Origin: an uncultured bacterium
GTDB taxonomy: Bacteria; Patescibacteriota; Minisyncoccia; Phycocordibacterales; PALSA-1337
Assembly: GCA_903846945.1 (NCBI GenBank)
Contig: CAINCE010000042.1
Location: 1 to 55,053 of the forward strand
Direction: 5' to 3'
DNA: 55,053 nucleotides
A program made the position numbers and the translations under genes. A model generated the notes under the pieces. It was not told the origin of the DNA, ran no database searches, and was given only the letters and a program-made list of their open reading frames with translations. Positions 1,133-55,053 of the stretch are shown piece after piece. Numbering within the stretch: position 1 is the first letter of the stretch; every line of letters begins with the position of its first letter.

Positions 1133-2488
1133 TTACGCTATCACTCCCCCTCCCAAACACTCTTCACCGCGACTATCATAGACCACAAGTGACTGTCCCG
1201 ATGTCAGCGTATCTTGCGATTCTTCGAACTCCAACACTGTTTCAGTTATCCCCGTCCTTTTAATGCGTGCCTTTTGAAGTTCTTGACGATAACGACTACG
1301 GACTAGCAATGGGAATTTAATCGTTAATTTTACTTTACCCAACTCGTCACTATCTTTTACTGCATCTACAATTCCATTCGTCGACTTTATACTGGCCGGC
1401 ACAATTTCAAATATAGGTACCTCACCACGTATCCAATTCACATTCTGAATTCGAACTTCGCGAGTCGCACTCGGAAGCGATCTATCTTCATCCTTCCCTC
1501 TGTTCGATACAGTCAGAGTATTATGCTCCACATCTTTGTCTATCACAAAATACGGCGCGTCGTTAGGCGACTTCTTTTCGATAGTAAATCCATGTCTCTC
1601 ACCTATAGTGAAGAATAGTGCACCAGGATGCGAGCCAATGACTTCCCCACCCTCATTCAGGACATTCCCTTTTTCAGATTTAATATAATGTGAGAGAAAG
1701 TCTTTTACATCAACTTTTCCGATAAAGCAAAGTCCTTGACTATCTCTCTTGTCAGCATTCGGTAATTTGAATTTCTTCGCGAGCTTTCTCACCTCTGGTT
1801 TCTCTATCCCACCAACTGGAAATAGTATATGTGCGAGCTGAGACTGCTTCAATGTCCAGATGAAATATGATTGGTCTTTGTTGCGGTCGACTCCCGCAAA
1901 CATCGCGTATTCAGCATTTCCTGAGAATTTGTGTGCAGGGGACTTGCGGTCAACACCCGTGTACAATCCAAGTGAAGTATTTGGAAGATCTGCTGAGGGG
2001 ACTCTCGGAGCCACGAAGGTGGCGAGAGGGAATGCGCGCCTAGCAAGGCGCGACATGTGCCCCGAAGCGGAACTTTCAAATACTTCACTTACTATCCGCG
2101 CATAATGCCCCGTCGCAACATAGTCGGCCCCCTCCTTCATCGCCCAATCATAGAAAGCCCCGAACTTCACAGTCTTGTTGCACATCACATCAGGGTTAGG
2201 AGTTCGCCCTGCTCGATATTCAGCGATCATATAGTCTATAACACCTTGTTTGTATTCCCTTTCACAGTCCAATGTAACGAATGGGATTCCTAGATGTGCA
2301 GCAACCCTCATTGCATCCCTCCTCTCTTCTTGCCAATTGCATTCTATCCAATCTGGTTGCCAAACCTTGATAAATACACCCATAACATCGAAGCCTGCTT
2401 TTTGCAACAAGGCAGCAGAAACAGCACTATCTACCCCGCCAGATAGCCCGACGAACACTCGCTTCTTGGACGATTTGACTTTTACCAT
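1133..2488 (-). CDS. mnmA: tRNA 2-thiouridine(34) synthase MnmA carrying an internal insertion
   Basis: Motifs: PP-loop SGGVDSAV, ATGHYAR, NKDQSYF, DSQGLCFIG. Start taken at MVKVKSS (2488) because the upstream ATG at 2515 lies inside a heptamer repeat. Confidence 0.9.
   Translation of the reverse strand: MVKVKSSKKRVFVGLSGGVDSAVSAALLQKAGFDVMGVFIKVWQPDWIECNWQEERRDAMRVAAHLGIPFVTLDCEREYKQGVIDYMIAEYRAGRTPNPDVMCNKTVKFGAFYDWAMKEGADYVATGHYARIVSEVFESSASGHMSRLARRAFPLATFVAPRVPSADLPNTSLGLYTGVDRKSPAHKFSGNAEYAMFAGVDRNKDQSYFIWTLKQSQLAHILFPVGGIEKPEVRKLAKKFKLPNADKRDSQGLCFIGKVDVKDFLSHYIKSEKGNVLNEGGEVIGSHPGALFFTIGERHGFTIEKKSPNDAPYFVIDKDVEHNTLTVSNRGKDEDRSLPSATREVRIQNVNWIRGEVPIFEIVPASIKSTNGIVDAVKDSDELGKVKLTIKFPLLVRSRYRQELQKARIKRTGITETVLEFEESQDTLTSGQSLVVYDSRGEECLGGGVIA
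1971..2090. repeat. 120-bp GC-rich element with 17-bp terminal inverted repeats, in frame inside mnmA
   Basis: AGTGAAGTATTTGGAAG (1971-1987) is the reverse complement of CTTTCAAATACTTCACT (2074-2090) with 1 mismatch. The interior is visibly GC-richer and has a central hairpin, GCGCGCC-N6-GGCGCG. It is 40 codons with no stop in the mnmA frame. Confidence 0.7.
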
Positions 2489-2507
2489 TTCTGCAATATA
2501 GCATGAA

Positions 2508-2558
2508 CTAGCCACTAGCCACTACTTGCCGGCCGAAGCCTTGGCGAAGGCTTCGGCC
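2508..2558. repeat. Heptamer remnant (CTAGCCA x2.5) followed by a perfect 12-bp stem / 4-nt loop hairpin
   Basis: CTAGCCACTAGCCACTAC at 2508-2525. GGCCGAAGCCTT-GGCG-AAGGCTTCGGCC at 2531-2558. CCACTAC occurs on both sides of the hairpin. Confidence 0.8.
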
Positions 2559-5093: not shown

Positions 5094-6137
5094 CTATTTC
5101 GCTCCCATGACCGCATATTTACCATCTCTATCTCTCTTGAAATATTTTGGATTCTGGAGATTGACAACTATAGTATTTTCCTTGACATATCTCTCCTTCA
5201 ACACCTTATCGACGATCTCTTCTTTGGTGAGTGGACCATTTTTCTCGATGACATGTGCGATGACATCACGAACGATCCCTGGTGCATATCCCCACTCTGC
5301 TAGAGCGTATAGTCCTCGTCCAACTAGGACAAACCGAGGGTCTTTGATGAGTTCATTGTGAGTCGTAGCGACATGAGCCTTCTTGTTGAACATCGTTGTG
5401 ATCTGTTTTGCAACATCACGGAAGTGTATAGGAGAACCATGCTTCCTGATAACTAGAAAGGCGTAGTCGCGCATACCCTTGGTCTTTACATTGGATGAAT
5501 TGGAAACTCCCCAATCGCCGAGCGCGTTCTTGCCGATAGCTTTCGAGAGTCCGAGCCAACGCTTTACAACCTCTTGATTCTTGTATTTCTCAGAAACATC
5601 TTCGAGGTGACTGAGGAATCTATTTACCATCTCGGATTCTGGGAGGAGATCTTGGTTACTCAGATTTCCATAAAGCTTCTTTAGTGCTTCCTCAACTTTC
5701 TTTGCGAGCTCTTCATTTACATGCCAGCGATGTCGGAAATCATCATCTTCTTTGAATTTTCGGAATGGTTCACCGACGACGAGTAGGAAGAAGATATGGT
5801 TCTGTAGACTCTTATCTTTGGAGACATGCCCGAGGAAATCATCCTCAACTACGATGCCACCTAGAGAATGGAGCAATGCCTCGATCTCGGCAAAGACAGC
5901 TTTTTCCTCTATATATTCCTCTGACTTTCTGATCTGATTTAGGGCGTAGTTCTCGATCTGGCGAACTCGTTCACGAGTTATACCATATATCTTTCCGATA
6001 GAGTCTAGGGTCATACGCTTTACATCCTTACCTAGTCCATATCTGTATATGATAACCTCACGAGCTCGATCAGGTAGAGATGAGAGAAGTCTCTTCACGG
6101 TCTGCTTTGGTTTGAATGAAATAGTTGCTGTGGCCAT
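5094..6137 (-). CDS. Sigma-70 region-4-like HTH fused to a HARE-HTH domain protein
   Basis: N-terminus YRYGLG...MTLDSIGKIYGITRERVRQIENYALNQIRK (region 4.2-like). C-terminus AFLVIRKHGSPIHFRDVAKQI...FVLVGRGLYALAEWGY (HARE-HTH-like). Confidence 0.7.
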   Translation of the reverse strand: MATATISFKPKQTVKRLLSSLPDRAREVIIYRYGLGKDVKRMTLDSIGKIYGITRERVRQIENYALNQIRKSEEYIEEKAVFAEIEALLHSLGGIVVEDDFLGHVSKDKSLQNHIFFLLVVGEPFRKFKEDDDFRHRWHVNEELAKKVEEALKKLYGNLSNQDLLPESEMVNRFLSHLEDVSEKYKNQEVVKRWLGLSKAIGKNALGDWGVSNSSNVKTKGMRDYAFLVIRKHGSPIHFRDVAKQITTMFNKKAHVATTHNELIKDPRFVLVGRGLYALAEWGYAPGIVRDVIAHVIEKNGPLTKEEIVDKVLKERYVKENTIVVNLQNPKYFKRDRDGKYAVMGAK

Positions 6138-6215
6138 GTTTGTTATAGATGATTAATGAATTTCTATATATAGACATTACCACTACTAGTGTTCTTTTGT
6201 CAACTACGGGGAAAA

Positions 6216-6267
6216 GTTTGAATGATCGCGTTTCAAAATAAGCTCCATCTTCATTAGTCATTCAAAC
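6216..6267 (-). terminator. Possible terminator hairpin downstream of the phosphoesterase gene
   Basis: GTTTGAATGA (6216-6225) pairs perfectly with TCATTCAAAC (6258-6267). On the minus strand it is followed by TTTTCC. The loop is large (32 nt). Confidence 0.3.
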
Positions 6268-6278
6268 AGGACCGACTC

Positions 6279-7592
6279 TTAGTAGCGCAAGAAGTCTTCG
6301 CTCATCTTTGTTATGATGTCATTTTCGAAATTGTAAAGTCTGACATAGGTCTGTGAAGTCGTAGCGGCATCTTGTGGCGTTATAACGACGAAGTTCATAG
6401 TCGTCAATTTTGGATTCTTGTCGATCCATGTCCCGGAATTTGCATAGATGGATTTTTGTCCTTGATAATTGAGAGACGGAATGATTTTTGCTTCATGAGT
6501 ATGTCCGAAAATCACGATCCTTTTGTCAGACTTAGGATTCATGAAATACTGTGCTTTTGCCTGATCATCAGTCTCCTCTGCGACCGAAGCCCTGGCAATA
6601 GCTTGAGCTACAGGAATATTTACAGGCACTTCGTTCAGAATCTGCCTCTCGTTCCAAGTATCCTGAATTCCTTTGTATAGTTTTACATTCAGCTGTCCAC
6701 CAGATTTTTGCTGGTAAGGCAACAGGTCATTGACTGAATATTTCTCTGTGAACCCGTCAACATTCGTTACGATGATCTTCTCATCGAGATTTTCATTTAT
6801 TGGCAGATGATTCATCGCCCATTCCCAGAGTTTCCAATAAGCGAACAACAAACCTTGACTGTTATCGCCAGAAACATTTGGTGTAACTATTTGCATAGGA
6901 TCACCCGGTTGCGTGGCATTTTCTAGCATATGCAGAGCAGCTATCCTTGTAAAGAAGTATCCTGGAGGCATTATCGTCCCAGGCGCAATATCTTGGTTGG
7001 AGATCGGATCCGGTGCACAGAAGAAATTGTAACGATGACCATGCTCGATAGCTATCTTTGGAAATTCAGCCGGTGAGTAAGTGCCCAAACCTTGCTCCTT
7101 ATCTCGCGCCTGATGTATTCCCGGGAGAATGAGGTCTATATTTTCCGCAGCTATCGTTAGATCATGGTTTCCGGGAACATAAGTGACTAGAATCTTTCCA
7201 GACTTGATAATGTCATTAAAATCACTGATTACACCCTTGTTGGTTGTCGCTATACGCTGCACAAAATCACGCTGGTCCTTTCCAGAATAAGTATTTACCG
7301 ATGCTGGTACATACCACTCATCCAGCAAATCTCCAGCGATAACGAGTTCCTTCACATTTGGCGAAACTTTTATCTGTTTAAGCAATTTCTCGAGAGATGG
7401 AGTATTTTTGTTAAATTCGGCATAAGCGAGATCGGCACCAAGGTGAAGATCACTGAGAACAACTACCATATTCCTCTCCTTTCCAGCATTAGTGAAAGGA
7501 TTTGTTAGACTACCCAGATGAGATCTATCGTATATTGCAAATGTAATAATGAACGCCGCAATAATGATGATGATTGTATAAAATATTTTCAT
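6279..7592 (-). CDS. Calcineurin-like metallophosphoesterase with N-terminal signal/anchor
   Basis: Motifs: VVLSDLHLG, AGDLLDEW, PGNHD, FGHTHE. Hydrophobic N-terminus. Confidence 0.8.
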   Translation of the reverse strand: MKIFYTIIIIIAAFIITFAIYDRSHLGSLTNPFTNAGKERNMVVVLSDLHLGADLAYAEFNKNTPSLEKLLKQIKVSPNVKELVIAGDLLDEWYVPASVNTYSGKDQRDFVQRIATTNKGVISDFNDIIKSGKILVTYVPGNHDLTIAAENIDLILPGIHQARDKEQGLGTYSPAEFPKIAIEHGHRYNFFCAPDPISNQDIAPGTIMPPGYFFTRIAALHMLENATQPGDPMQIVTPNVSGDNSQGLLFAYWKLWEWAMNHLPINENLDEKIIVTNVDGFTEKYSVNDLLPYQQKSGGQLNVKLYKGIQDTWNERQILNEVPVNIPVAQAIARASVAEETDDQAKAQYFMNPKSDKRIVIFGHTHEAKIIPSLNYQGQKSIYANSGTWIDKNPKLTTMNFVVITPQDAATTSQTYVRLYNFENDIITKMSEDFLRY

Positions 7593-8191: not shown

Positions 8192-8198
8192 ATATTTG

Positions 8199-8285
8199 TT
8201 AGTGATTAGTGGCTAGTTTTTAGTGATTAGTATCCGCCAACCAGAGGAGCGATTTCTAATCACTAGTCACTAACCACTAGCCACT
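8199..8285. repeat. Hairpin element with heptamer-array arms (TAGTGAT/TAGTGGC family) around a GC-rich loop
   Basis: The left arm TTAGTGATTAGTGGCTAGTTTTTAGTGATTAGTA pairs imperfectly with the right arm TAATCACTAGTCACTAACCACTAGCCACT. The 24-nt loop is TCCGCCAACCAGAGGAGCGATTTC. Confidence 0.7.
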
Positions 8286-8341
8286 TGTTACTATTTATCT
8301 ACTTCTAATACTCTCTACTCTACCAAATGACCGATAAAGAA

Positions 8342-11322: not shown

Positions 11323-11352
11323 TTGACTCCGCCTACCTTTTTGTGCTTTACT
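11323..11352 (+). promoter_or_regulatory. Candidate sigma-70 promoter for typA
   Basis: TTGACT (11323-11328), 18-nt spacer, TTTACT (11347-11352). It lies 35 nt upstream of the typA ATG. Confidence 0.35.
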
Positions 11353-11386
11353 AGATACATCGAGCCAACGGCTCTATTTTCATCTT

Positions 11387-13264
11387 ATGGAAATCCGCAA
11401 CATAGCTATCATCGCACACGTCGACCACGGTAAGACCACTCTTACCGACGCTATCATGACCCAATGTGGTCACGGTGACGAAGGTACCATGGACAGTAAT
11501 GCCCTCGAACAGGAGCGCGGTATCACCATATACGCAAAGAATACATCCGTTAACTACAAAGGTACCAAGATCAACATAGTCGACACCCCAGGCCACGCTG
11601 ACTTCGGTTCAGAAGTTGAGCGAGTGCTCCGTGCCATCGATGCAGTTCTACTCGTCGTCGACGCCCAGGAAGGTCCTATGCCGCAGACTCGCTTCGTCTT
11701 GAAGAAATCCCTTGAACTAGGTCTGAAGCCTATCGTCGTCATCAACAAGATCGACAAGCCAGCAGCCAATCCTGCTCGTGTGCACGACGAAGTCCTCGAG
11801 CTTTTCATGGAACTGGGTGCGCATGATTCTCAGATCGACTTCCCTACTATCTATGCTATCGGTCGCACTGGTGTCGCGAAGAAGTCCCTCACGGACGATT
11901 CGAAAGATCTCACACCACTATTAGATACTATTATTGAGTATGTTCCTGCGGCTAATGCAAAGGGTCTAGGGTTTAGGGTCGAGGGTATAGGAAGCACAAA
12001 GAAATCCGAACAAGGCCCTAAACCCTATACCCTAAACCCTATACCCTCGCTCACTGCGCAAGTATTTAACCTCGGCTATGACAACTTCCTCGGTCGTCTC
12101 GCAGTTTGCCGTATCTATTCTGGTACGATCAGAGATGGTCAAAATATATGGGTAAAGGATGTCAATGGCAAATCATTTACGGGTAAAGTGACGAAACTAT
12201 TTACATTTGAAGGAAAAAAGCGCCTCGAGACAGCGCAAGCTGAGGCGGGTGATATCGTCACCGTTGCTGGTGTTCCAGAAATATTTATTGGCGAAACCAT
12301 CACAGATAACGAGGCCACCGAGCCATTGCCAGCTATCAGTGTAGATGAACCAACCATCTCTCTACAATTCCTCGTAAACAATTCCCCATTTGCTGGAAAA
12401 GAGGGCACTTTCGTCACAGGTAGACAGATCCGCGAGAGACTCGAACGAGAACTAGAGACAAATGTCGGGCTCAAAGTTGATTTCTCCATGAATGAATTTT
12501 TTACCGTTTTTGGCCGAGGTGAACTTCACATCGGCATCTTGCTCGAGAATATGAGACGAGAAGGCTTTGAACTCCAAGTCTCTCAACCAAAGGTCATCAT
12601 CAAAGAAGAAAAAGATGCCGCGGGTAATATTACAAAAACTTTAGAGCCTTTCGAGGAAGTGATCATCGATACACCCCAAGAATTTTCTGGAACCATCATC
12701 GAAACTCTCGGCAAGCGCAAGGGTATCATGTCCAACATGACAACACATGGTAACCAAGTACGCATGGTTTTCGAGATACCAACTCGCGGACTACTAGGTT
12801 ATCGCAATGCATTTACCATCGATACGAAAGGTGAAGGCATCATGTCTAGTCGTGTCATCGGTTTTAGAGACCATGTCGGACTCATCGAGAAGCGCGAAAC
12901 AGGTTCTATGACATCGATGGTTTCTGGCAAGTCATTCGGTTTCTCATTATGGAACCTCCAGGACCGCGGCAGACTATTCATCGTTCCTGCTTCGGATATC
13001 TATGAAGGAATGGTCATCGGTGATACATCAAAGGGTGATGACCTAGAAGTAAACCCATGTAAAGGTAAGCAACTTTCTAACATGCGTTCATCTGGTAAAG
13101 ATGAAGCTCTCACATTGGTTCCACCATTTATCTTGTCGATCGAACGCGGTCTCGAACTCATGCGAGATGATGAGTACCTCGAGATTACTCCGAAAAATAT
13201 CAGACTCCGCAAGAAGTTTTTAACTGAGTTAGATAGAGCTAGGGCGAGGAGGAAGGATTTGTAA
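11387..13264 (+). CDS. typA: Translational GTPase TypA/BipA with an in-frame repeat insertion
   Basis: Motifs: [23 protein letters not shown]-terminal BipA-type region (LVPP...LEITP..IRLRK). Confidence 0.95.
11965..12048. repeat. Heptamer-arm hairpin (TAGGGTN / CCCTAWA) inside the typA reading frame
   Basis: The left arm TCTAGGGTTTAGGGTCGAGGGTATAGG pairs with the right arm CCCTAAACCCTATACCCTAAACCCTATACCCTC. The 24-nt loop is AAGCACAAAGAAATCCGAACAAGG. It is translated as [28 protein letters not shown]. Confidence 0.85.
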
Positions 13265-13276
13265 GTTTGCGCAGGC

Positions 13277-14221
13277 CTACCCTGCGCAGATTTTTGTCCT
13301 CTTTATACTCAATGCAAACGCACCAGTTCCTAGGTCGCGCCCTATTCTATGTGCAAGTGATCGCATATAGGTACCACTGGAGCATTTAACGCGTAATTTG
13401 ATCAAAGCGAATTCAATATGATTCATTTGATTTGCTATTTCTTCCGATGTGTCTGTGTGGTCCCCAGACAATAATCCCTTTTGCATCACTGGCAAAGTTG
13501 ACCAATTTTTAGTCAACTTTTGTACCCACTGCTTCTTTATCTCCTCCTGCCTAAAGTCACCCTTAACTAGATCAATTTTCTGCAATATTTTCGCCAGTAA
13601 TAGATCTGCACCGATCTTCCCACCTGACAACAAATCGATCAAATATATCTCCACTTCCTTGGTCGGCATTTCATCCTGCGTCGGCAATTCCCCGCTCCGT
13701 GCCAACTCGTGAAGCTGTTTTCCATTCACAGTCTTCGAAGAATACGGCGGGTACGGTTGAACAAATTTGCCAGTATATCTTTGAAGCCACTGTTGATTGA
13801 CAGTTTCTATTCCAGCACTGATCGCCAAGTCATTACTCTCGATCGACATCCATCTGACCTTCGATTCGCTTTTCAAATGAATTCCTGACGCGCCGATCTC
13901 ATTCGTCACAATTCCCAAAGCATCATATGTATCAGTTTCCAATCCAATTACGATCTCCACTTCATATTCCTTATCTAGCCATAAATACTTTTCCTTATCC
14001 TTACACTCTTCACCAATCAGGATAAGTAACTTCCCTTCCGCCATCGGGTCCAGTCGGCCTGCATAAGTCAGTGGCACACCTTTCCATGAATGCGTACCTA
14101 AAATCGACGCACCACTATTAGTATCATTTCCATTCTTTTCTGCCTGGATTTTCCCCAAACGAAACCTCTCCAAAGCTTCGAGTGGAGTCTCACCGACCAG
14201 TTTGTCTATGATTTGAAGCAT
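13277..14221 (-). CDS. truB: tRNA pseudouridine(55) synthase TruB
   Basis: AGRLDPMAEGKLLILIGE catalytic-Asp motif. C-terminal SSGTYMRSLAHRIG. Confidence 0.85.
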   Translation of the reverse strand: MLQIIDKLVGETPLEALERFRLGKIQAEKNGNDTNSGASILGTHSWKGVPLTYAGRLDPMAEGKLLILIGEECKDKEKYLWLDKEYEVEIVIGLETDTYDALGIVTNEIGASGIHLKSESKVRWMSIESNDLAISAGIETVNQQWLQRYTGKFVQPYPPYSSKTVNGKQLHELARSGELPTQDEMPTKEVEIYLIDLLSGGKIGADLLLAKILQKIDLVKGDFRQEEIKKQWVQKLTKNWSTLPVMQKGLLSGDHTDTSEEIANQMNHIEFALIKLRVKCSSGTYMRSLAHRIGRDLGTGAFALSIKRTKICAG

Positions 14222-22731: not shown

Positions 22732-24681
22732 TTACCCCCTAACTTTCTTCCCCACCTCCGCCTTCCTGATAGACAATGCGTGGCATTTCTTGGCGAGTTC
22801 TGCTAAGCGTGTCGCATCACCAGCCTTTTCTGCAACTCGGAGTTCCTGCATCGCATCTATCAATTCTTCATTGACGATATCTAGACCAAAATTAGATATC
22901 AGTTCCTTCATATGTATGTCCCATTTTGCCACATCGCTACCATACATCGCCTCAGCTTCGAATGACATATCACCTATCTGATCTGACACCCTCAGAGCCC
23001 GACCAGCGTATGACTCCCCCGCTGTCTTCTCTACCTCGGCTAGATATTCGGAATATTTCTTCTCATCCTGCTTCTTGATCAAATGTAGTAGGCCGAACAT
23101 ACGGCGTTCCACCAGATCATTATGTTTCTGCTTGTATGTATACGCATCAGACTGCACAGAAGTTGCAGATGCATGTAGATTGCTTCCTGCCGAGACACTA
23201 GAATTATTTGTTGAGCCTTTTGTAAGGCTGGCACTAGTAGCAGTCGGTGCCAAAGCTTCCGTTTCCATCTTTTTCCTAACTGCACGCAGATCATCCCATA
23301 TAGCACCTGCGTCAATATTCGCCTTGTCAGCGATCATCTTTACAAAATAGTCCTGATCTGTTCGACTATCGATACTCGCGAGCAATGGAAACACTCTCTC
23401 ACGCAGCATTCGTGGGATCTTGCGTGGGTCCTTTTCATCTCGGAGTACATTCATCAATTCAAATTCAACAACGGGTTTAGTGGTACGCAATATCTCTTTC
23501 CATATTTCTGGATTTTCCTTCACCAAGTCTGCTGGATCCTTGCCACCAACGATGTCTGCCATCTTCACATCCATACCGAGTGAGAGTGCTATGCCTGCTG
23601 CTCGAAATGCGGCTTTACGACCAGCGTTATCAGAGTCGAAAGCTATCACCACATTTGGAGATAGACGACGGATGAGTCCGAGATTGTTCACTGCACCCGC
23701 TTTATTTACCGACTCATCTGACAGAGCTGTACCTGATGCAGCCACGATATTCTTTACCCCTGCCTGATATGACATGATGAGATCCATCTGACCTTCGACC
23801 ATGATGGAATAATTCATCGTGCGAATAGAAGTCTTCGCCTTGTCCAGTCCGAACAATATAGATGACTTGTCATATAGCAATGTATCTGGGCTGTTTAGAT
23901 ACTTTGCTGACCTCTCGTCCTCCTTCAATATGCGACCCGTGAATGCGACTATACGCCCACTGGAGTCAGAGATAGGAAACATCACGCGACCTCGGAATCG
24001 GTCATAGTAGGATGCTGCGAGAGAATGTGGAGAAAGTTGACCAGAAATGGCTTTCGGACCGAGTGAAGACGAGGAAGAACGAGTTGCTTCGCCAGCAGGC
24101 GAAGACAGCGTACGTTTCGGGGCAACTTCCTCCACATTCCTATCTTTCTTCTTTATGAGCCCCGCCTTTTCAATCACTACCTGACCCCATCCCTTTTTCT
24201 TCAGGTATTCAAATAGATGTGTCCAACCCTCTGGCGCCCAACCTATGCGAAATGCTTCTTTCGTTTCTGGCTTTATGCCACGACCCTTCACATACTCTTG
24301 TGCATCCTTCGAACGGGCATATTGGTCTTCAAAGAATTTTGCCGCGTCCTCCATGATGCGGAACAATTGGTCCCTCTCGCTCTCGTCTTTCTGATTCACT
24401 ACCAGAGGCACGCCCGCTCTTTCAGCGAGCACTTTGAGTGCGCCCTTGAAATCGAGTCCTTCGAACTGCTCGACAAAGTTAAATATGTCCCCTTTCGAAT
24501 TACACCCAAAACAGTAATACCCGCCTCTCTCCGGTGATATGAAAAATGACGCCGACTTCTCGTTGTGAAATGGGCACTTGGCTTTGTATGACTTCCCTGC
24601 ACGGTCGATCTTCACATAGGAACCGATGAGGTCTTCTATGGGTATGCGAGCTTTGATCTCTTCGACAGTGGTTCGTGACAT
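22732..24681 (-). CDS. dnaG: DNA primase with an in-frame inserted element
   Basis: Zinc ribbon CPFHNEKSASF...YYCFGC. TOPRIM EGQMDLI and DSDNAGRKAA. Start at MSRTTVEEIK (24681) by similarity to primase N-termini. Confidence 0.92.
   Translation of the reverse strand: MSRTTVEEIKARIPIEDLIGSYVKIDRAGKSYKAKCPFHNEKSASFFISPERGGYYCFGCNSKGDIFNFVEQFEGLDFKGALKVLAERAGVPLVVNQKDESERDQLFRIMEDAAKFFEDQYARSKDAQEYVKGRGIKPETKEAFRIGWAPEGWTHLFEYLKKKGWGQVVIEKAGLIKKKDRNVEEVAPKRTLSSPAGEATRSSSSSLGPKAISGQLSPHSLAASYYDRFRGRVMFPISDSSGRIVAFTGRILKEDERSAKYLNSPDTLLYDKSSILFGLDKAKTSIRTMNYSIMVEGQMDLIMSYQAGVKNIVAASGTALSDESVNKAGAVNNLGLIRRLSPNVVIAFDSDNAGRKAAFRAAGIALSLGMDVKMADIVGGKDPADLVKENPEIWKEILRTTKPVVEFELMNVLRDEKDPRKIPRMLRERVFPLLASIDSRTDQDYFVKMIADKANIDAGAIWDDLRAVRKKMETEALAPTATSASLTKGSTNNSSVSAGSNLHASATSVQSDAYTYKQKHNDLVERRMFGLLHLIKKQDEKKYSEYLAEVEKTAGESYAGRALRVSDQIGDMSFEAEAMYGSDVAKWDIHMKELISNFGLDIVNEELIDAMQELRVAEKAGDATRLAELAKKCHALSIRKAEVGKKVRG
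24023..24139. repeat. 117-bp GC-rich element with 19-bp terminal inverted repeats, in frame inside dnaG
   Basis: GAATGTGGAGAAAGTTGACC (24023-24042) versus the reverse complement of GGCAACTTCCTCCACATTC (24121-24139). Central hairpin CTTCGCC-AGCA-GGCGAAG. It is 39 codons (NVEEVAPKRT...GQLSPHS). Confidence 0.75.
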
Positions 24682-24726
24682 GTGTGTAGTATAGGGTATT
24701 GAAGGCAAAGTATAAAGGGTGGTGCA

Positions 24727-24745
24727 ATGTGCATAACTTGCACAT
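24727..24745. promoter_or_regulatory. Operator-like palindrome ATGTGCA-N5-TGCACAT (copy 1)
   Basis: Perfect inverted half-sites within the 10-bp-stem hairpin 24724-24748. It lies 46 nt upstream of the dnaG start. Confidence 0.45.
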
Positions 24746-24782: not shown

Positions 24783-24801
24783 ATGTGCAAAATTTGCACA
24801 T
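24783..24801. promoter_or_regulatory. Operator-like palindrome ATGTGCA-N5-TGCACAT (copy 2)
   Basis: Identical half-sites and spacing. Its centre is 56 bp from the centre of copy 1. Confidence 0.45.
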
Positions 24802-34461: not shown

Positions 34462-34585
34462 GAGATTTACGATTTCCATGCCTGACGGCAGGCAGGAGGA
34501 TTTAAGATTTAAGATTTATGAATCGTCGCAAGCTCACCGAGAAATTGCATCATTCGTAAATATTAAATCTATATTCGTAAATCTT
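34462..34585. repeat. GATTTAN-family composite hairpin in the rpoB 5' region
   Basis: GGATTTAAGATTTAAGATTTATGAATCG pairs imperfectly with CATTCGTAAATATTAAATCTATATTCGTAAATC. There is an outer GATTTACGATTT copy and a small GCCTG-ACGG-CAGGC hairpin. Confidence 0.7.
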
Positions 34586-37635: not shown

Positions 37636-37706
37636 TAAAGTCTTTAAAGTCCGTAAAGTCATGACTACGACTTTATAGACTTTCCAACTTTATGGACTTT
37701 ATGGAC
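37634..37706. repeat. AAAGTC-family hairpin abutting the radC stop codon
   Basis: CTTAAAGTCTTTAAAGTCCGTAAAGTC / GACTTTATAGACTTTCCAACTTTATGGACTTTATGGAC around an 8-nt centre. Confidence 0.8.
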
Positions 37707-38437
37707 TATTTTATAATACTTACAAATCTATCTTTCGTGATGATGACATGGTCGAGAACAGTGATGCCCAAGATCTTCCCGGCTTGGACCAACTGTTTCG
37801 ATATCTCGACGTCCTGGTCACTAGGAGTAACTTCGCCTGATGGATGGTTGTGTGCCAATACTACCGCGGCGGCGTTGCACTCGATACCAGCGCGAAATAC
37901 TTCTCTAGGATGGATGATATTCGAATTGACTGTACCTATGGATATGACCTCATCTCGGATAATCTTGCTGTGACTATTTAGAAACAGTCCGCGAAGGTGC
38001 TCCTTGGGCAGATTCCTCATATCCTGCAAATAGTTGTATACATCTTCGGCATTTCTGATGGTGGTAAAACCAGACTGATTCTTCTCACCATACCTCCTAG
38101 CTATCTCACCTACGGCCACGATGATGCAGGCCTTGCCTATAGGGATATCCAGGTCACTCGAGAGATGCTCGGGATCAGTCTCAGACAATATGGTCTTTTC
38201 CCCATACTCCTTCATGATCCTGTTGGACAGCTCGATAACGTCTTCCTTGACCGAACCAGTATTCAAGATAACCGCTATAAGCTCACGCATAGTGAGCGAC
38301 TGGGGTCCTTGAGACATGAGTTTTTGTCGAGGCTTTTCTTCACTCGGCAAATCATGGATCGTGATCAGATAATCACGACTACTGGAGCCGTCTAGAAACA
38401 GCGAGTTGTCCAATATTTTGTATGCACTTTTTTGCAT
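37706..38437 (-). CDS. radC: RadC-like JAB/MPN domain protein
   Basis: HNHPSGEVTPSDQD JAMM-type motif. Start set at MQKSAYKIL, because the longer ORF would overlap the pyk 3' end. Confidence 0.85.
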   Translation of the reverse strand: MQKSAYKILDNSLFLDGSSSRDYLITIHDLPSEEKPRQKLMSQGPQSLTMRELIAVILNTGSVKEDVIELSNRIMKEYGEKTILSETDPEHLSSDLDIPIGKACIIVAVGEIARRYGEKNQSGFTTIRNAEDVYNYLQDMRNLPKEHLRGLFLNSHSKIIRDEVISIGTVNSNIIHPREVFRAGIECNAAAVVLAHNHPSGEVTPSDQDVEISKQLVQAGKILGITVLDHVIITKDRFVSIIK

Positions 38438-40996: not shown

Positions 40997-41563
40997 TCAC
41001 TTTTTTCGGCATTTATATATGAATGCCGGTGGAAAATTCCTCAACTCCAGTCCGATAATCTTTGCCTTGAATGATCTGCGTACATGCAACCAACTCGTCA
41101 AAAGATACTGAAACTGTATGTATGCCCCATCATCTCGCATACTTTCTGTAATGGCACGAAATAGCCTCTCTCGCCCGGCATGATCAAAATTGGCTATCGG
41201 CAATCCAGATATCACATAGTGAACTGGTGGAATATTCAAACTCTTTAGATGTAATGGTAATTTTGCCGCATCATCTTCTATGAGAAATACTCTTCCTCTT
41301 CGAATATTCGTTTGCAAATCCTGTCGAAGTCTTTTGGCCAAATTTCTATTATTCTCAAAAACAATTAACCTGCAATCTTCAGGAAATTTCGATAGAATTT
41401 GCTTCGTTATTATCCCCGTACCAGCACCGAGCTCCACGATCGTCATACCTGGCGAAACCTTTAGGGGCTCTAACATCCTCCGACTCAAAGCCGACGTGCT
41501 CGGTAGCAATGAGCCTTGTGTTTTCCAATTTTTTAGGGCTTCTTTGACAAAGGTGAGAGACAT
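40997..41563 (-). CDS. Class I SAM-dependent methyltransferase
   Basis: Motif I VELGAGTGIIT. Start set at MSLTFVKEAL. The 57-aa Arg-rich N-terminal extension of the tracked ORF runs through a repeat and is judged spurious. Confidence 0.75.
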   Translation of the reverse strand: MSLTFVKEALKNWKTQGSLLPSTSALSRRMLEPLKVSPGMTIVELGAGTGIITKQILSKFPEDCRLIVFENNRNLAKRLRQDLQTNIRRGRVFLIEDDAAKLPLHLKSLNIPPVHYVISGLPIANFDHAGRERLFRAITESMRDDGAYIQFQYLLTSWLHVRRSFKAKIIGLELRNFPPAFIYKCRKK

Positions 41564-41570
41564 TGTGGTA

Positions 41571-41611
41571 CACATTGCTAGGGGTATTCGGATTCGGTGC
41601 GCGCGCCAGGA
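41571..41611. repeat. 41-bp perfect direct repeat, copy 1 (contains a duplicate of the last 14 nt of tRNA-Ile)
   Basis: CACATTGCTAGGGGTATTCGGATTCGGTGCGCGCGCCAGGA is identical to 41730-41770. Confidence 0.95.
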
Positions 41612-41729
41612 GTTTCTCCCTCGGCTCTCACTCACTACCCGTTCGTTCGGCCTGGGCACCGCCTCGCCACCTCGCCTACTGGCTCGGTATGGCTCCGGCG
41701 TTCGAATCCTGATTCGCAATGTGCGCAGG

Positions 41730-41770
41730 CACATTGCTAGGGGTATTCGGATTCGGTGCGCGCGCCAGGA
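41730..41770. repeat. 41-bp perfect direct repeat, copy 2 (overlaps the genuine 3' end of tRNA-Ile)
   Basis: Identical to 41571-41611. The two copies bracket a 118-bp GC-rich segment. Confidence 0.95.
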
Positions 41771-41829
41771 TTCGAACCTGGGACCCCGCCAGTATCAGTG
41801 GCGTGCTCTACCAACTGAGCTACGCGCGC
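41757..41829 (-). tRNA. tRNA-Ile (anticodon GAU)
   Basis: Manual cloverleaf: GCGCGCG acceptor, D-arm GCTCAGTTGGTAGAGC, anticodon arm CGCCA-CTGATAC-TGGCG, T-arm CCAGG-TTCGAAT-CCTGG. No encoded CCA. Confidence 0.9.
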
Positions 41830-43521: not shown

Positions 43522-43605
43522 GATTTACGATTTAAGATTTATGATTTAAGAATGGCGCGACTTCTAGGTGACTATTCTTAAATCCTAAATCCTAAATCTT
43601 AAATC
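43522..43605. repeat. Hairpin element: (GATTTAN)x4 arm, 20-nt GC-rich loop, (NTAAATC)x4 arm
   Basis: The 32-nt arms are complementary at 29/32 positions. The loop is GGCGCGACTTCTAGGTGACT. It fills the rplX-rplE spacer. Confidence 0.9.
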
Positions 43606-44243: not shown

Positions 44244-44255
44244 TGAAGTTAGATT

Positions 44256-44329
44256 GAATTATGAAATATGATATATGAATTATGATTTATGGATTTTTCG
44301 TATCTCATATTTCTTATCTCATATCTCAT
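44256..44329. repeat. ATGANNT-family heptamer arms forming an imperfect hairpin
   Basis: ATGAAAT ATGATAT ATGAATT ATGATTT ATGG / CGTATCT CATATTT CTTATCT CATATCT CAT. The right arm ends on the rpsQ stop codon. Confidence 0.7.
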
Positions 44330-44629: not shown

Positions 44630-44709
44630 GAGCTAAGAGCTTGGAGGTAAGAGATAAGATTTTGAATATATGAGTTTTGCGATTAATCTTATCTCTAAGC
44701 TCTTAACTC
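44630..44709. repeat. GAGNTAA-family heptamer arms forming a hairpin
   Basis: GAGCTAAGAGCTTGGAGGTAAGAGATAAGATT versus the reverse complement of AATCTTATCTCTAAGCTCTTAACTC. The right arm overlaps the last codons of rpmC. Confidence 0.8.
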
Positions 44710-44891
44710 TTGTGCTTCTGCATCTCCGTCATTATCCTCGCTATGTCCTTTCTAAGGTTCCGGCCTTCCTTTACGTTCTTGGCCTTGGCACCAGCAGAAC
44801 CGAATCGGAATGCTCGTAGAGCCTCCCTCTTCTCTGTGATGAGTCTCGTAAGGTCAGCGACTGGTTTATTTGTTATTTCTTTGAATTTCAT
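44703..44891 (-). CDS. rpmC: 50S ribosomal protein L29
   Basis: 62 aa. LRAFRFGSAGAKAKNV...LRKDIARIMT. Confidence 0.9.
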   Translation of the reverse strand: MKFKEITNKPVADLTRLITEKREALRAFRFGSAGAKAKNVKEGRNLRKDIARIMTEMQKHKS

Positions 44892-46153: not shown

Positions 46154-46278
46154 AGTCTATAAAGTCTTTAAAGTCTTTAAAGTCATAAAGTCCATAAAGT
46201 TATTTGTTTTTCTCTACCTTTTCCGTTTTCGACTTTACGGACTTTATGGACTTCTCTGACTTTGGACTTTTAGACTTC
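46154..46278. repeat. AAAGTC-family hairpin whose second arm is the coding sequence of the L22 C-terminal tail
   Basis: The arm at 46154-46200 (TATAAAGTC TTTAAAGTC TTTAAAGTC ATAAAGTCC ATAAAGT) is complementary in motif to 46231-46278 (GACTTTAC GGACTTTAT GGACTTCT CTGACTTT GGACTTTT AGACTTC), which lies inside rplV. Confidence 0.8.
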
Positions 46279-53689: not shown

Positions 53690-55053
53690 TAAAATGACAC
53701 CGAAGGCCTACTGGTTCTCTGAAATAAATAGACACCGAAAACCGTGGTACGGTGATGAGATTACTAGCCATAATCTACACCACCAACATGGATACGGAAT
53801 CTACCAAACAATATATGAAAACATTACAGGAGGAATACCTCCAAGCTGACAGAAAGAAGAAAGGCGAGATACTAGATGAATTTTGCAAGAATACCAAACA
53901 AGAACGCAAGTATGCAATCAAGAAGTTTAGAAACATAGTGAAGTTGAAGAAAGAGGGAGAAAAACGCAAACCAAGGAAACAATACTACAATGGATTGGTA
54001 AAAGCAGCTTTAGCTAAGATGTGGAAGATATTTGACTACCCTTGTGGACAGAGATTGGCACCCCTCCTCGAAACAGAGACCGATCGTATGAGGAAACTTG
54101 GTGAACTAGTTTGCTCCGATGAAACAGCAGAGAAATTGAAGACTATCGTCCCATCGACTATTGATGAGAAACTGAAGCATGAAAAGGAAGTCGAGATGCA
54201 GAAGCACAAATACAAGAAGAAGTGTGACTCGCTTCTTTGCTCTAAGGTTCCTACTAAAACCAGTGCTGAATTAGATCGAGAAAACCCAGGAGTCGCACAG
54301 ATCGATTTCGTCGAACATTGCGGAGCATCAGCTGCTGGAGAATATGTGAATTCGCTCTCAACCGTCGACATATTCTCTGGTTGGTGGGAAGGAGATGGAG
54401 TAATGGGAAAAGGTCAGGAAAGAGCACTGAAAGCCATAGATGAGGCTAGAAAGCGGTCACCAATACCTTGGAGGGAGATGCATCCAGACAATGGTGGTAA
54501 CATCATGAATTACCATGTGTATGAGTATGCAATGACAAATGGTATCGACTACTCTCGTTCTAGACCTTACAAGAAGAATGATAACTGCTTTGTGGAGCAG
54601 AAGAACTCGACACACGTGAGACAAATAGTGGGACACCTTAGACACGATACCGAGGAAGAAAGAAGGATCATTTCTGATCTGTATCGAAACGAACTACGAC
54701 TTTACAAGAACTTCTTTCAACCAGTACTGAAGCTCGTAGAGAAAGTTAGAATCAAAGGTAAGATCAAGAAGAAGTATGACAAGGCAAAAACACCATATCT
54801 CCGACTCATGGAGTCAGACAAGATTAGCAAGGAGACAAAGATTGAATTGAAGAAAACCTATGACTCGCTGAACCCAGCGGAACTGAAAAGGAAGATTGAC
54901 ACGAAACTAAAGTTACTCCACAAAGAATATCAGAAAAGCAAAAACTCAAAAAAATCCGAGAAAAGTTACAAGAAACTAACACCAACCATAGTGTCTACTT
55001 TAATCGGTCAACCAGTGTAGCTTCGGTGTCATTATTAAATCGGTTGACACGGA
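53690..55053 (+). mobile_element. IS-like element: DDE transposase gene flanked by inverted AATGACACCGAAG repeats; right boundary may lie beyond the window
   Basis: AATGACACCGAAG (53693-53705) is the exact reverse complement of CTTCGGTGTCATT (55021-55033). A second GACACCGAA lies at 53731-53739. Confidence 0.7.
53752..55020 (+). CDS. DDE (rve/integrase-core type) transposase
   Basis: Candidate catalytic triad contexts: QIDFVEH, MHPDNGGNIMN, CFVEQKNSTHVRQ. Basic HTH-like N-terminus. I cannot assign a family with confidence. Confidence 0.7.
   Translation: MMRLLAIIYTTNMDTESTKQYMKTLQEEYLQADRKKKGEILDEFCKNTKQERKYAIKKFRNIVKLKKEGEKRKPRKQYYNGLVKAALAKMWKIFDYPCGQRLAPLLETETDRMRKLGELVCSDETAEKLKTIVPSTIDEKLKHEKEVEMQKHKYKKKCDSLLCSKVPTKTSAELDRENPGVAQIDFVEHCGASAAGEYVNSLSTVDIFSGWWEGDGVMGKGQERALKAIDEARKRSPIPWREMHPDNGGNIMNYHVYEYAMTNGIDYSRSRPYKKNDNCFVEQKNSTHVRQIVGHLRHDTEEERRIISDLYRNELRLYKNFFQPVLKLVEKVRIKGKIKKKYDKAKTPYLRLMESDKISKETKIELKKTYDSLNPAELKRKIDTKLKLLHKEYQKSKNSKKSEKSYKKLTPTIVSTLIGQPV

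Follow-up and report, generated by a model that had tools for sequence, protein, structure and literature searches.

What has lengthened the loop between the TGHYA and NKDQ motifs of MnmA, the tRNA 2-thiouridine synthase, to 72 residues in an uncultured patescibacterium, when the shortest relatives have 12–13 and the solved S. pneumoniae enzyme (2HMA) has only 6 between the aligned blocks at this position? The gene lies in a stretch of 55,053 nucleotides (hereafter the window; contig CAINCE010000042.1 of GenBank assembly GCA_903846945.1). A sequence-only reading had attributed the expansion to a discrete GC-rich element that bears terminal inverted repeats and entered the gene without shifting its frame, and had seen hints of rearrangement beside it. 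Our analysis largely confirms that observation, and its core, an in-frame inverted-repeat element with rearrangement nearby, is supported and extended. We think it likely that the element belongs to a low-copy family of selfish, hairpin-forming, non-autonomous coding palindromes in Taylorbacteria/Paceibacteria (Patescibacteria; candidate phyla radiation, CPR), which can be flipped, are tolerated as surface loops and are akin to Rickettsia palindromic elements (RPEs) and to MITEs (miniature transposable elements with inverted repeats). The gene, the insert and its immediate surroundings are laid out as follows.

1133–2515, minus strand: mnmA (tRNA 2-thiouridine synthase), an open reading frame (ORF) of 460 aa.
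1971–2089, minus strand: element copy 1, a coding palindrome of 119 bp, core-forward on the mnmA sense strand ('S' orientation).
1970–2000: arm of the outer stem P1, 31 nt, inner GGGG/CCCC helix included (inverted-repeat search).
2060–2090: partner arm of P1 (inverted-repeat search, covariation).
2032–2056: core hairpin P2, ATG(T)CGCGCC, 6-nt loop, GGCGCGCAT, the most conserved part of the element.
2002–2028: core hairpin P3/P4, CTCTCG-CCRCC-TTCG-GYGG-CTC-CGAGAG.
1943–1970, minus strand: tail LGLYTGVDRK that follows the element and resembles locus L006, where high identity to L006 stops.
1880–1942, minus strand: loop module SPAHKFSGNAEYAMFAGVDRN, which resembles the 'empty-site' loop of L007/P0003 and holds the second GVDR copy.

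Pfam recognizes the tRNA_Me_trans HUP, PRC-barrel and C-terminal domains in the product, and its homologues are annotated MnmA. The annotated GTG start at 2515 is likely nine codons early, the real one being probably the ATG downstream (MVKVK...), to judge from relatives that begin MVKVK/MVNVK. The insert is bounded by terminal inverted repeats of 17 nt with one mismatch, just as had been described (1971–1987, AGTGAAGTATTTGGAAG, and 2073–2089; chance expectation 0.00 in 100 dinucleotide shuffles), and the complementarity of the arms reaches 31 nt at 84% (1970–2000/2060–2090). It is thus a discrete element, as proposed, although its length is not 120 bp but 119 bp between the repeat ends (1971–2089), or 121 bp counting one further A-T pair. 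Its 86-bp interior is indeed the GC-richer part, with 65% GC against 45% in the remainder of mnmA and 44% in the window. The element begins at codon phase 0 of mnmA and its frame is open, giving the peptide SEVFESSASGHMSRLARRAFPLATFVAPRVPSADLPNTS; the claim that its length is a multiple of three holds for the net insertion (+39/+40 codons) and not for the 119 bp themselves. The anticipated central hairpin is present at 2032–2056 (ATGCGCGCC-TAGCAA-GGCGCGACAT) and is accompanied by a second at 2002–2028. As single-stranded DNA, the element folds into the long outer stem P1, the inner GGGG/CCCC helix and the two core hairpins P2 and P3/P4, with an energy of -34.8 kcal/mol vs -13.1 ± 2.7 for shuffles (z = -8.0; 0/200 shuffles equally stable). 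The AlphaFold2 model of the window MnmA is confident (predicted TM-score, pTM, 0.78) except at residues 146–199, where the predicted local distance difference test (pLDDT) falls below 50; these residues form the tip of a β-hairpin between strands E140–143 and E203–206. The insert is therein predicted to be a disordered surface loop compatible with the fold. A second variable MnmA segment (residues ~365–400) shows no hairpin (z = +0.9).

Is this segment an old part of the gene or a newcomer? In what follows, L-numbers denote DNA loci of relatives and P-numbers homologous proteins. The nearest MnmA homologues, 349–604 aa long, are from Candidatus Taylorbacteria/Paceibacterota, and in their alignment the stretch from ATGHYAR to NKDQSYF is a hotspot of length variation, with a basal loop of 12–13 aa and 17–80 aa in the others. 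The peptide read in the window's frame (…SGHMSRLARRAF…APPKVP…) is present in P0002, P0005, P0007/8, P0074, P0080 and P0116; that of the opposite strand (…FGGAKAPRRNARLARRDMCP…) is found in P0012, P0014 and P0015, and P0016 reads a second sense frame of the element. The site is empty in P0003/P0004 (L007; 70% amino acid identity) and filled in the more distant P0080 (54%), the common mnmA form of the element being a net +39 codons over the empty alleles. Only loop remnants are seen in P0010 ('AYAPPKVPS') and P0011 ('PYAEHGDTSLH'). Because orthologues show empty, sense and reverse-complemented states at the same site, the segment is not ancestral coding sequence. Identical or near-identical copies recur in independent assemblies (NCBI GCA_037146795, three ENA ERZ273000xx samples and JGI Ga0194053/60/63).

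The host alleles are mosaics. In L006 the mnmA element is oriented as in the window, and the two genes share 96.9% identity (gene positions 28–572) as far as 27 nt beyond the element, after which the value drops to 75%; the 3′ half of the window gene is nearer to L007 (82%). On these profiles, the window mnmA is best read as a recombinant allele, in which an L006-like 5′ part with the element and '…GVDRK' is joined to an L007-like loop 'SPAHKFSGNAEYAMFAGVDRN…'. Such recombination would explain the duplicated GVDR segment that had been pointed out beside the element (1881–1896/1944–1959, 16 nt, 88%), and the suspicion of local rearrangement was well founded. Another pair, L001 and L004, has mnmA genes with 99.7% identity upstream of the hotspot (934 nt) and 94% downstream of it, and elements alignable only as reverse complements, at 90%. 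In two independent allele pairs (L001/L004 and window/L006), identity consequently ends at the element. That a recent flip alone separates L001 from L004 was rejected, their elements being 10% apart and L004 having an extra inverted module of 48 nt; both appear from their sequences to be older, recombined alleles. L004 carries the loop module SPAHKFSGNAEYAMFAGVDRN in reverse complement (AAFPEDLGEGDLRA), and the rearranged region can therefore exceed the palindrome. The mnmA alleles of opposite orientation belong to distinct strains. Finally, L010, which encodes P0016, has a compound copy read in a third frame: the remains of one copy (an old arm and 11 nt from the start of a core) precede a complete copy whose phase differs, and it looks as if a second copy had inserted into an older one or had recombined with it.

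Does the element occur elsewhere? A degenerate exact core pattern, AYRTGTYGCGCNNTGCTNNNCGCRCAYT, was scanned in genome, metagenome and viral collections. It was found at 3 loci among 185,579 species genomes (one match per genome in three genomes) and at 3 in the metagenome set, with 0 matches in viral contigs; this exact pattern is too strict for diverged copies such as that of dnaG below. All six matches are Taylorbacteria-like, and five of them are the mnmA hotspot. The sixth is L009, from a related Taylorbacteria metagenome-assembled genome (MAG), where the element is in frame within tRNA-guanine transglycosylase (Pfam TGT, E = 7e-131), in a Tgt loop of 49 residues vs 13 in a solved Tgt (Z. 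mobilis TGT). A covariance model built from eight copies, R1, recognizes element copy 1 with 134 bits (E = 1e-30) and located a diverged copy in the window's own dnaG, which an earlier BLASTN-short search had missed.

22732–24708, minus strand: dnaG (primase; Pfam), its DNAG_N domain split by the insert.
24020–24142, minus strand: element copy 2, diverged, in frame in dnaG, sense orientation (R1 55 bits, E = 3.5e-11).

The arms of element copy 2 (24023–24047/24115–24139) are an inverted repeat of 25 nt at 88%, its peptide is RNVEEVAPKRTLSSPAGEATRSSSSSLGPKAISGQLSPHSL, and it adds exactly 40 codons relative to the empty dnaG allele L015. Its P2 stem is compensated, with CTTCGCC/GGCGAAG where others have CGCGCC/GGCGCG, and it retains the loop motifs YTGCTRG and TCCGAAAG. 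Among relatives, the DnaG of P0122/L015 (83% identity) has a clean empty site, GLIKKKEGANTYYDRFRGR, L015 and the empty-mnmA locus L007 being parts of one assembly; P0124 and P0125 have the sense form and P0123/L016 (78%) the flipped form. The dnaG genes of the window and L016 are collinear in their flanks, and their elements match only in reverse complement (79–81%). Across Paceibacteria, the DnaG loop is 18–69 aa long. The sequence-only reading had conceded that its insertion would be in doubt if the segment were the sole copy of its kind and ancestral in orthologues; copies exist in the tgt of L009 and in the window's dnaG (24020–24142), and the site is empty in the mnmA of P0003/P0004 (L007) and the dnaG of P0122 (L015). 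The window thus holds two element copies in 55 kb, a lower bound for the copy number of the genome. BLASTN-short of the element against the window returned only 9–14-mers. Peptide-profile searches with the sense-frame peptides gave nothing among 5.8 billion proteins (12 word candidates, none scored) and, among 1.84 billion representatives, only truncated MnmA plus two low-complexity false positives, the query being too short.

What is conserved between copies, sequence or pairing? Copies range from 113 to 123 bp and all have the same P1/P2/P3 architecture (minimum free energy -55 to -73 kcal/mol). Covariation was measured on an alignment of eight copies, with slid partners and 500 shuffles as controls. 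Watson-Crick or wobble pairs fill 94.9% of the pair cells vs 35–53% in the slid controls, and 28 of the 46 pairs have changed on both sides, a value reached by 0/500 shuffles. Most of these changes are in P1 (22/26 pairs); P2 has 97.5% of its cells paired and P4 100%, each with 3 pairs changed on both sides. Since G-T wobble intermediates are nearly absent, the pattern indicates strand-symmetric complementarity at the DNA level, which fits better than the helix of a one-strand RNA. Mean identity between lineages is 89% in the 59-nt core and 53% in the arms, as compared with 82% upstream and 73% downstream in the flanking catalytic-domain coding sequence (CDS), where third codon positions reach 58% and 47%, respectively. 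Because core identity exceeds that of the flanking CDS and the arms are lowest, the core would seem to be constrained at the nucleotide level, or to have spread horizontally, and the arms to need only to pair.

The reading frame is as regular as the fold. All nine distinct DNA copies sit in intact host ORFs, and all seven closely related ones, the independent tgt insertion included, start at codon phase 0. Flipping the element about the centre of the palindrome brings no stop in any of the eight copies tested; it turns the S-type peptide into the A-type and back, reproducing the natural forms, and the remaining four frames usually hold stops. Such openness is not automatic, because an unrelated palindrome in the dnaG loop of L017 would gain a stop when flipped. 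In nature, both orientations occur at orthologous sites of two genes (mnmA and dnaG).

Based on the above data, we propose the following life history. In each copy, an outer stem of 20–30 bp, kept in complementarity and not in sequence, encloses the conserved GC-rich core, which is asymmetric, spans ~60 nt and forms two small hairpins. Only insertions that happen to be in frame, in a part of a gene that codes for a loop, would persist. The element being stop-free in one frame per strand, with the two frames as flip partners, read-through in either orientation would yield a disordered surface loop rich in Ala, Gly, Ser, Pro and Arg. A resident element could be flipped via recombination or template switching between its arms, and it could travel between strains on homologous-recombination tracts, which would leave mosaic host alleles with breakpoints at the element. 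A resident element that is struck again would become a compound copy (L010), and decay by deletion would leave lineage-specific loop remnants. In E. coli, long palindromes provoke breakage and recombination through SbcCD-dependent processing, and similar events may play a role at these elements. We infer the mode of transposition, the translation of the element and its near-neutrality under selection, as well as the origin of the two orientations by flipping as opposed to independent re-insertion.

Several points weigh against this proposal. Copy number looks low (only 3 exact-core matches among 185,579 species genomes, with another 3 from the metagenome set), and R1 found no intergenic copy in the window plus about 180 kb of related loci (~230 kb scanned), whereas RPEs and MITEs usually occur in abundance, in intergenic DNA as well. 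Filled and empty alleles are 16–30% diverged, with no direct repeat evident at the element borders, and a target-site duplication could not be defined from their comparison. No transposase, invertase or REP-associated tyrosine transposase (RAYT) was found in the window, whose sole transposase-like candidate is an ORF of 422 aa near its end (53752–55020, plus strand) with a weak rve (integrase-core) match of 28.8 bits, under the Pfam cut-off of 32.6; this ORF has no sequence similarity to the element, and the window is otherwise housekeeping. True transposition events may be few (at least three genes plus the compound L010), because copies in the same loop may descend from one old insertion each; that the mnmA and dnaG loops are used again and again could be explained by one such insertion per gene, then flips and losses. 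So strong a conservation of the core could signal a host function instead of purely selfish DNA, and translation of the element is predicted from its sequence.

Could the arms instead be the sites of an invertase, with the cell switching the loops of MnmA, DnaG and Tgt as a programmed phase variation? Inverted repeats of 20–31 nt do flank a segment of 60–65 nt, close relatives have opposite orientations at the same site in two genes, the frame is open in both states in 8/8 copies and not in the unrelated coding palindrome, and recoding intragenic invertons are already known (PMC10028968). We nevertheless consider such a programmed inverton unlikely. The arms would have to serve as the recombinase sites and yet are conserved least (53%), and opposite alleles are no plain flips, being 10–20% apart in the element and having extra modules. 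Moreover, no invertase or other recombinase for inversion was found among the window proteins, the hosts are housekeeping enzymes in which the segment is a predicted disordered loop, and the differences seen are all between strains. Equally improbable to our minds is a functional structured nucleic acid inside the CDS, for instance an mRNA structure that regulates in cis, a small RNA or a DNA cruciform bound by protein and used by the host, of which the peptide would be a by-product. This would suit the strong covariation, a core that surpasses the surrounding enzyme CDS, and by far its synonymous sites, in conservation, the loop sequences YTGCTRG and TCCGAAAG retained even in the diverged dnaG copy, and the fact that two of the three hosts (MnmA and Tgt) modify tRNA position 34. 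However, relative to the host mRNA the element is found in either orientation, something that no cis-acting mRNA structure would withstand; G-U pairs are nearly lacking, which is atypical of RNA helices, and close relatives do without it. A ribozyme or known RNA with a three-way junction was rejected on similar grounds: Rfam 15 gives no match at the gathering threshold (best permissive match 16.4 bits vs a gathering score of 70), and the two orientations also argue against it.

The hypervariability of these loops in Paceibacteria (MnmA 12–80 aa, DnaG 18–69 aa), with many inserts unrelated to the element, might invite the view of ordinary lineage-specific loop expansion, by ancestral coding or local duplication, with accidental self-complementarity. 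This is very improbable, given a fold z of -8, covariation above every control, clean empty sites and reverse-complement copies at the same site; one 59-nt core in three non-homologous genes, that is, the tgt and dnaG copies, effectively refutes it. Palindromes can also mislead assembly, and all of the data are metagenome assemblies, but a chimeric contig or misassembled palindrome is the least probable explanation of all, as copies recur across independent assemblies and projects with the host reading frames intact in every case. More speculative, and doubtful in our judgement, is a new class of hairpin-recognized mobile or invertible module, in which the two-hairpin core of 60 nt would be the site for a dedicated enzyme that inserts and flips it in the loops of essential genes.

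With which known systems, then, should the preferred reading, that of selfish coding palindromes, be aligned? RPEs are palindromes of 100–150 bp; housekeeping genes with no relation to one another carry them in frame, where the protein fold can accommodate them (PMC10969869, PMC1779305); the families RPE-1 to RPE-10 are those of Ogata et al. 2000 Science 290:347 and Ogata et al. 2002 Genome Res, as summarised in these two sources. The present element is likewise an imperfect palindrome of 100–150 bp, inserted in frame and dispersed in unrelated genes, with a surface location in the AlphaFold2 model. It also resembles RPEs in lacking transposase coding, in its small-genome host, in the extra peptide produced by read-through, in presence or absence between related genomes, and in the decay of old copies to lineage-specific inserts (PheT/RPE-7 is the RPE example). 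It departs from them in number and place, RPEs occurring in tens per genome, intergenic regions included, while the element is apparently low-copy with no intergenic copy in the scanned DNA. The hosts are Patescibacteria and not Alphaproteobacteria, and the likeness is one of features, with no sequence homology expected. Further differences are arms that evolve freely under complementarity around a highly conserved core, and the presence of both orientations at one orthologous site, stop-free in the flip-partner frames. To our knowledge, this last combination has not been described for RPEs.

Intragenic MITEs with ORFs include ERIC, BOX, QMITE1 of Coxiella and Anabaena MITEs (Delihas 2007, as cited in PMC10969869). 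They too are small and non-autonomous, have terminal inverted repeats, as here, and can make in-frame fusions with host ORFs; in contrast to the element, those families are mainly intergenic, with ends related to a parent insertion sequence (IS) and target-site duplications, and no cognate autonomous IS with matching ends is present in the 55-kb window. Recoding intragenic invertons (Chanin et al., 'Intragenic DNA inversions expand bacterial coding capacity', PMC10028968) are similar as inverted-repeat-flanked segments wholly inside a gene, the inversion of which recodes without breaking the frame. They differ in being switched by an enzyme in a clonal population, whereas the differences here are fixed between strains, the repeats are not conserved in sequence, and the segment is a dispersed repeat in several genes. 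With repetitive extragenic palindromic (REP) sequences and bacterial interspersed mosaic elements (BIMEs), served by RAYT (Y1 HUH), and with IS200/IS605 ends, the element shares non-autonomy and a hairpin that outweighs the sequence of the arms, and from its strict Watson-Crick symmetry one may suppose that it is recognized when folded as single-stranded DNA. REPs, however, are extragenic and 20–40 nt long, and neither RAYT nor TnpA was detected in the window. Inteins and homing introns are comparable as selfish in-gene insertions at fixed housekeeping sites, with patchy presence and flanking recombination tracts; the element has no splicing domain or endonuclease, is far too small at 39–40 codons, and is presumably kept in the mature protein. 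Since within-population switching and a dedicated invertase, the hallmarks of invertons, are not in evidence, we place the element with the RPE/intragenic-MITE kind, in no named family. In the literature searched, there was no CPR family with flip-symmetric coding, recurrent use of essential-gene loops and companion palindromes in typA and dnaG.

Other inserts and repeats were encountered in and around the host genes. The tgt of L009 (4934–6250) has a second insertion of ~28 aa (…KLAQVKDEPTSDDTNDEPTARLA…) at residues ~110–141, relative to solved Tgt structures. In the dnaG of L017 (10001–11968, Paceibacterota MAG), the unrelated coding palindrome occupies the same loop (z = -9.1), its arms TGTCATTCCCGCGAAGGCGGG and CCCGCCTTCGCGGGAATGACA being read VIPAKAGIQ … LDPRLRGND, and this type is also found in P0139, P0177, P0231 and P0237; a further insert type of that loop, '…SLSGAERLMARG…', is present in P0214, P0225, P0228 and P0231. 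The DnaG homologue P0128 (1026 aa) contains a LAGLIDADG domain (PF14528), probably that of an intein, another kind of selfish in-frame insertion. Just upstream of the window's dnaG, a 19-bp palindrome, ATGTGCAnAAnTTGCACAT, occurs twice, 37 bp apart (24727–24745 and 24783–24801), and the pair look like putative operator sites. Between a yceG-like gene and mnmA, after CTAGCCA repeats, the GC-rich hairpin 2520–2570 (GCCGAAGCCTT-GGCG-AAGGCTTCGGC) is probably a terminator. Three kb upstream of the L001 mnmA lies a cassette resembling diversity-generating retroelements (DGRs), with an RVT_1 reverse transcriptase and bAvd (5907–7290); an adjoining protein of 613 aa without Pfam matches could be a DGR target, and in L002 (5578–7491), whose mnmA is identical to that of L001, other small ORFs replace the reverse transcriptase and bAvd. 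A DGR origin of the element was rejected, the cassette being missing from the otherwise identical L002 and the element having no adenine-specific variation.

A third in-frame hairpin of the window, of a family different from the mnmA/dnaG element, is the 87-bp palindrome 11961–12047 inside the typA/bipA ORF (11327–13261, plus strand), in the linker between the GTPase domain and domain 2; its 31-nt arms of GGGTTTAGGGT-like units are 87% complementary (DNA fold z = -5.8), and it encodes 29 residues. In the truB-like ORF 13277–14221 (minus strand), the TruB_N Pfam match falls in two stretches, hinting at another insertion in a tRNA-modification enzyme. The sequence-only reading had also linked the element to a 118-bp segment next to tRNA-Ile, and this kinship does not hold: the two share a single 10-mer, with an alignment score of 10 that 393 of 500 shuffles match or exceed, a blastn-short E of 11 and a covariance-model score of 8.6 bits (E = 8.6). 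That segment, with 63% GC and not significantly structured, is bracketed by a perfect direct repeat of 41 nt (41571–41611/41730–41770) spanning the 3′ end of tRNA-Ile(GAT) and 25 nt downstream; ARAGORN finds only one tRNA there (41755–41829, minus strand). It holds an inverted T-arm-like copy (41691–41711 vs 41766–41786), an upstream methyltransferase ORF (40997–41734) extends into it, and it looks like a scar of integration or rearrangement at the tRNA 3′ end. AT-rich intergenic hairpins with tandem-heptamer arms (GATTTAA, TAGTGAT, TAAAGTC …), several of them between ribosomal-protein genes, may be a terminator-like or REP-like palindrome family.

43522–43605, 8193–8293, 44630–44711, 44255–44321, 46154–46252, 37639–37707 and 34505–34570: AT-rich intergenic hairpins.

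What does the element mean for these organisms? Protein-coding palindromes were earlier termed 'a unique but recurrent feature in Rickettsia', and the discovery of an unrelated family living in the same way in Patescibacteria suggests that, in small and gene-dense genomes, selfish DNA evolves time and again to hide within genes in the form of translatable surface loops, a view supported by the occurrence of at least two further types of in-frame palindrome (in typA and in the dnaG loop). Two features are added to the known pattern, stop-free flip-partner frames and both orientations at one site, by which one DNA element encodes two alternative peptide loops; the family thus links the RPE phenomenon with recoding intragenic inversions. 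If a hairpin-recognized module were indeed at work, the surface loops of CPR housekeeping enzymes would be recoded by a 'loop cassette' that is self-contained and translatable in both directions, and the apparent bias to enzymes of nucleic acids (MnmA, Tgt and DnaG) could reflect the Arg-rich peptides of both strands. In practical terms, such inserts inflate and fragment marker-gene alignments and make recombination breakpoints in core genes, and they could confuse strain-level analyses of CPR metagenomes. For the CPR themselves, the element offers a tangible origin for the many lineage-specific insertions found in their proteins.

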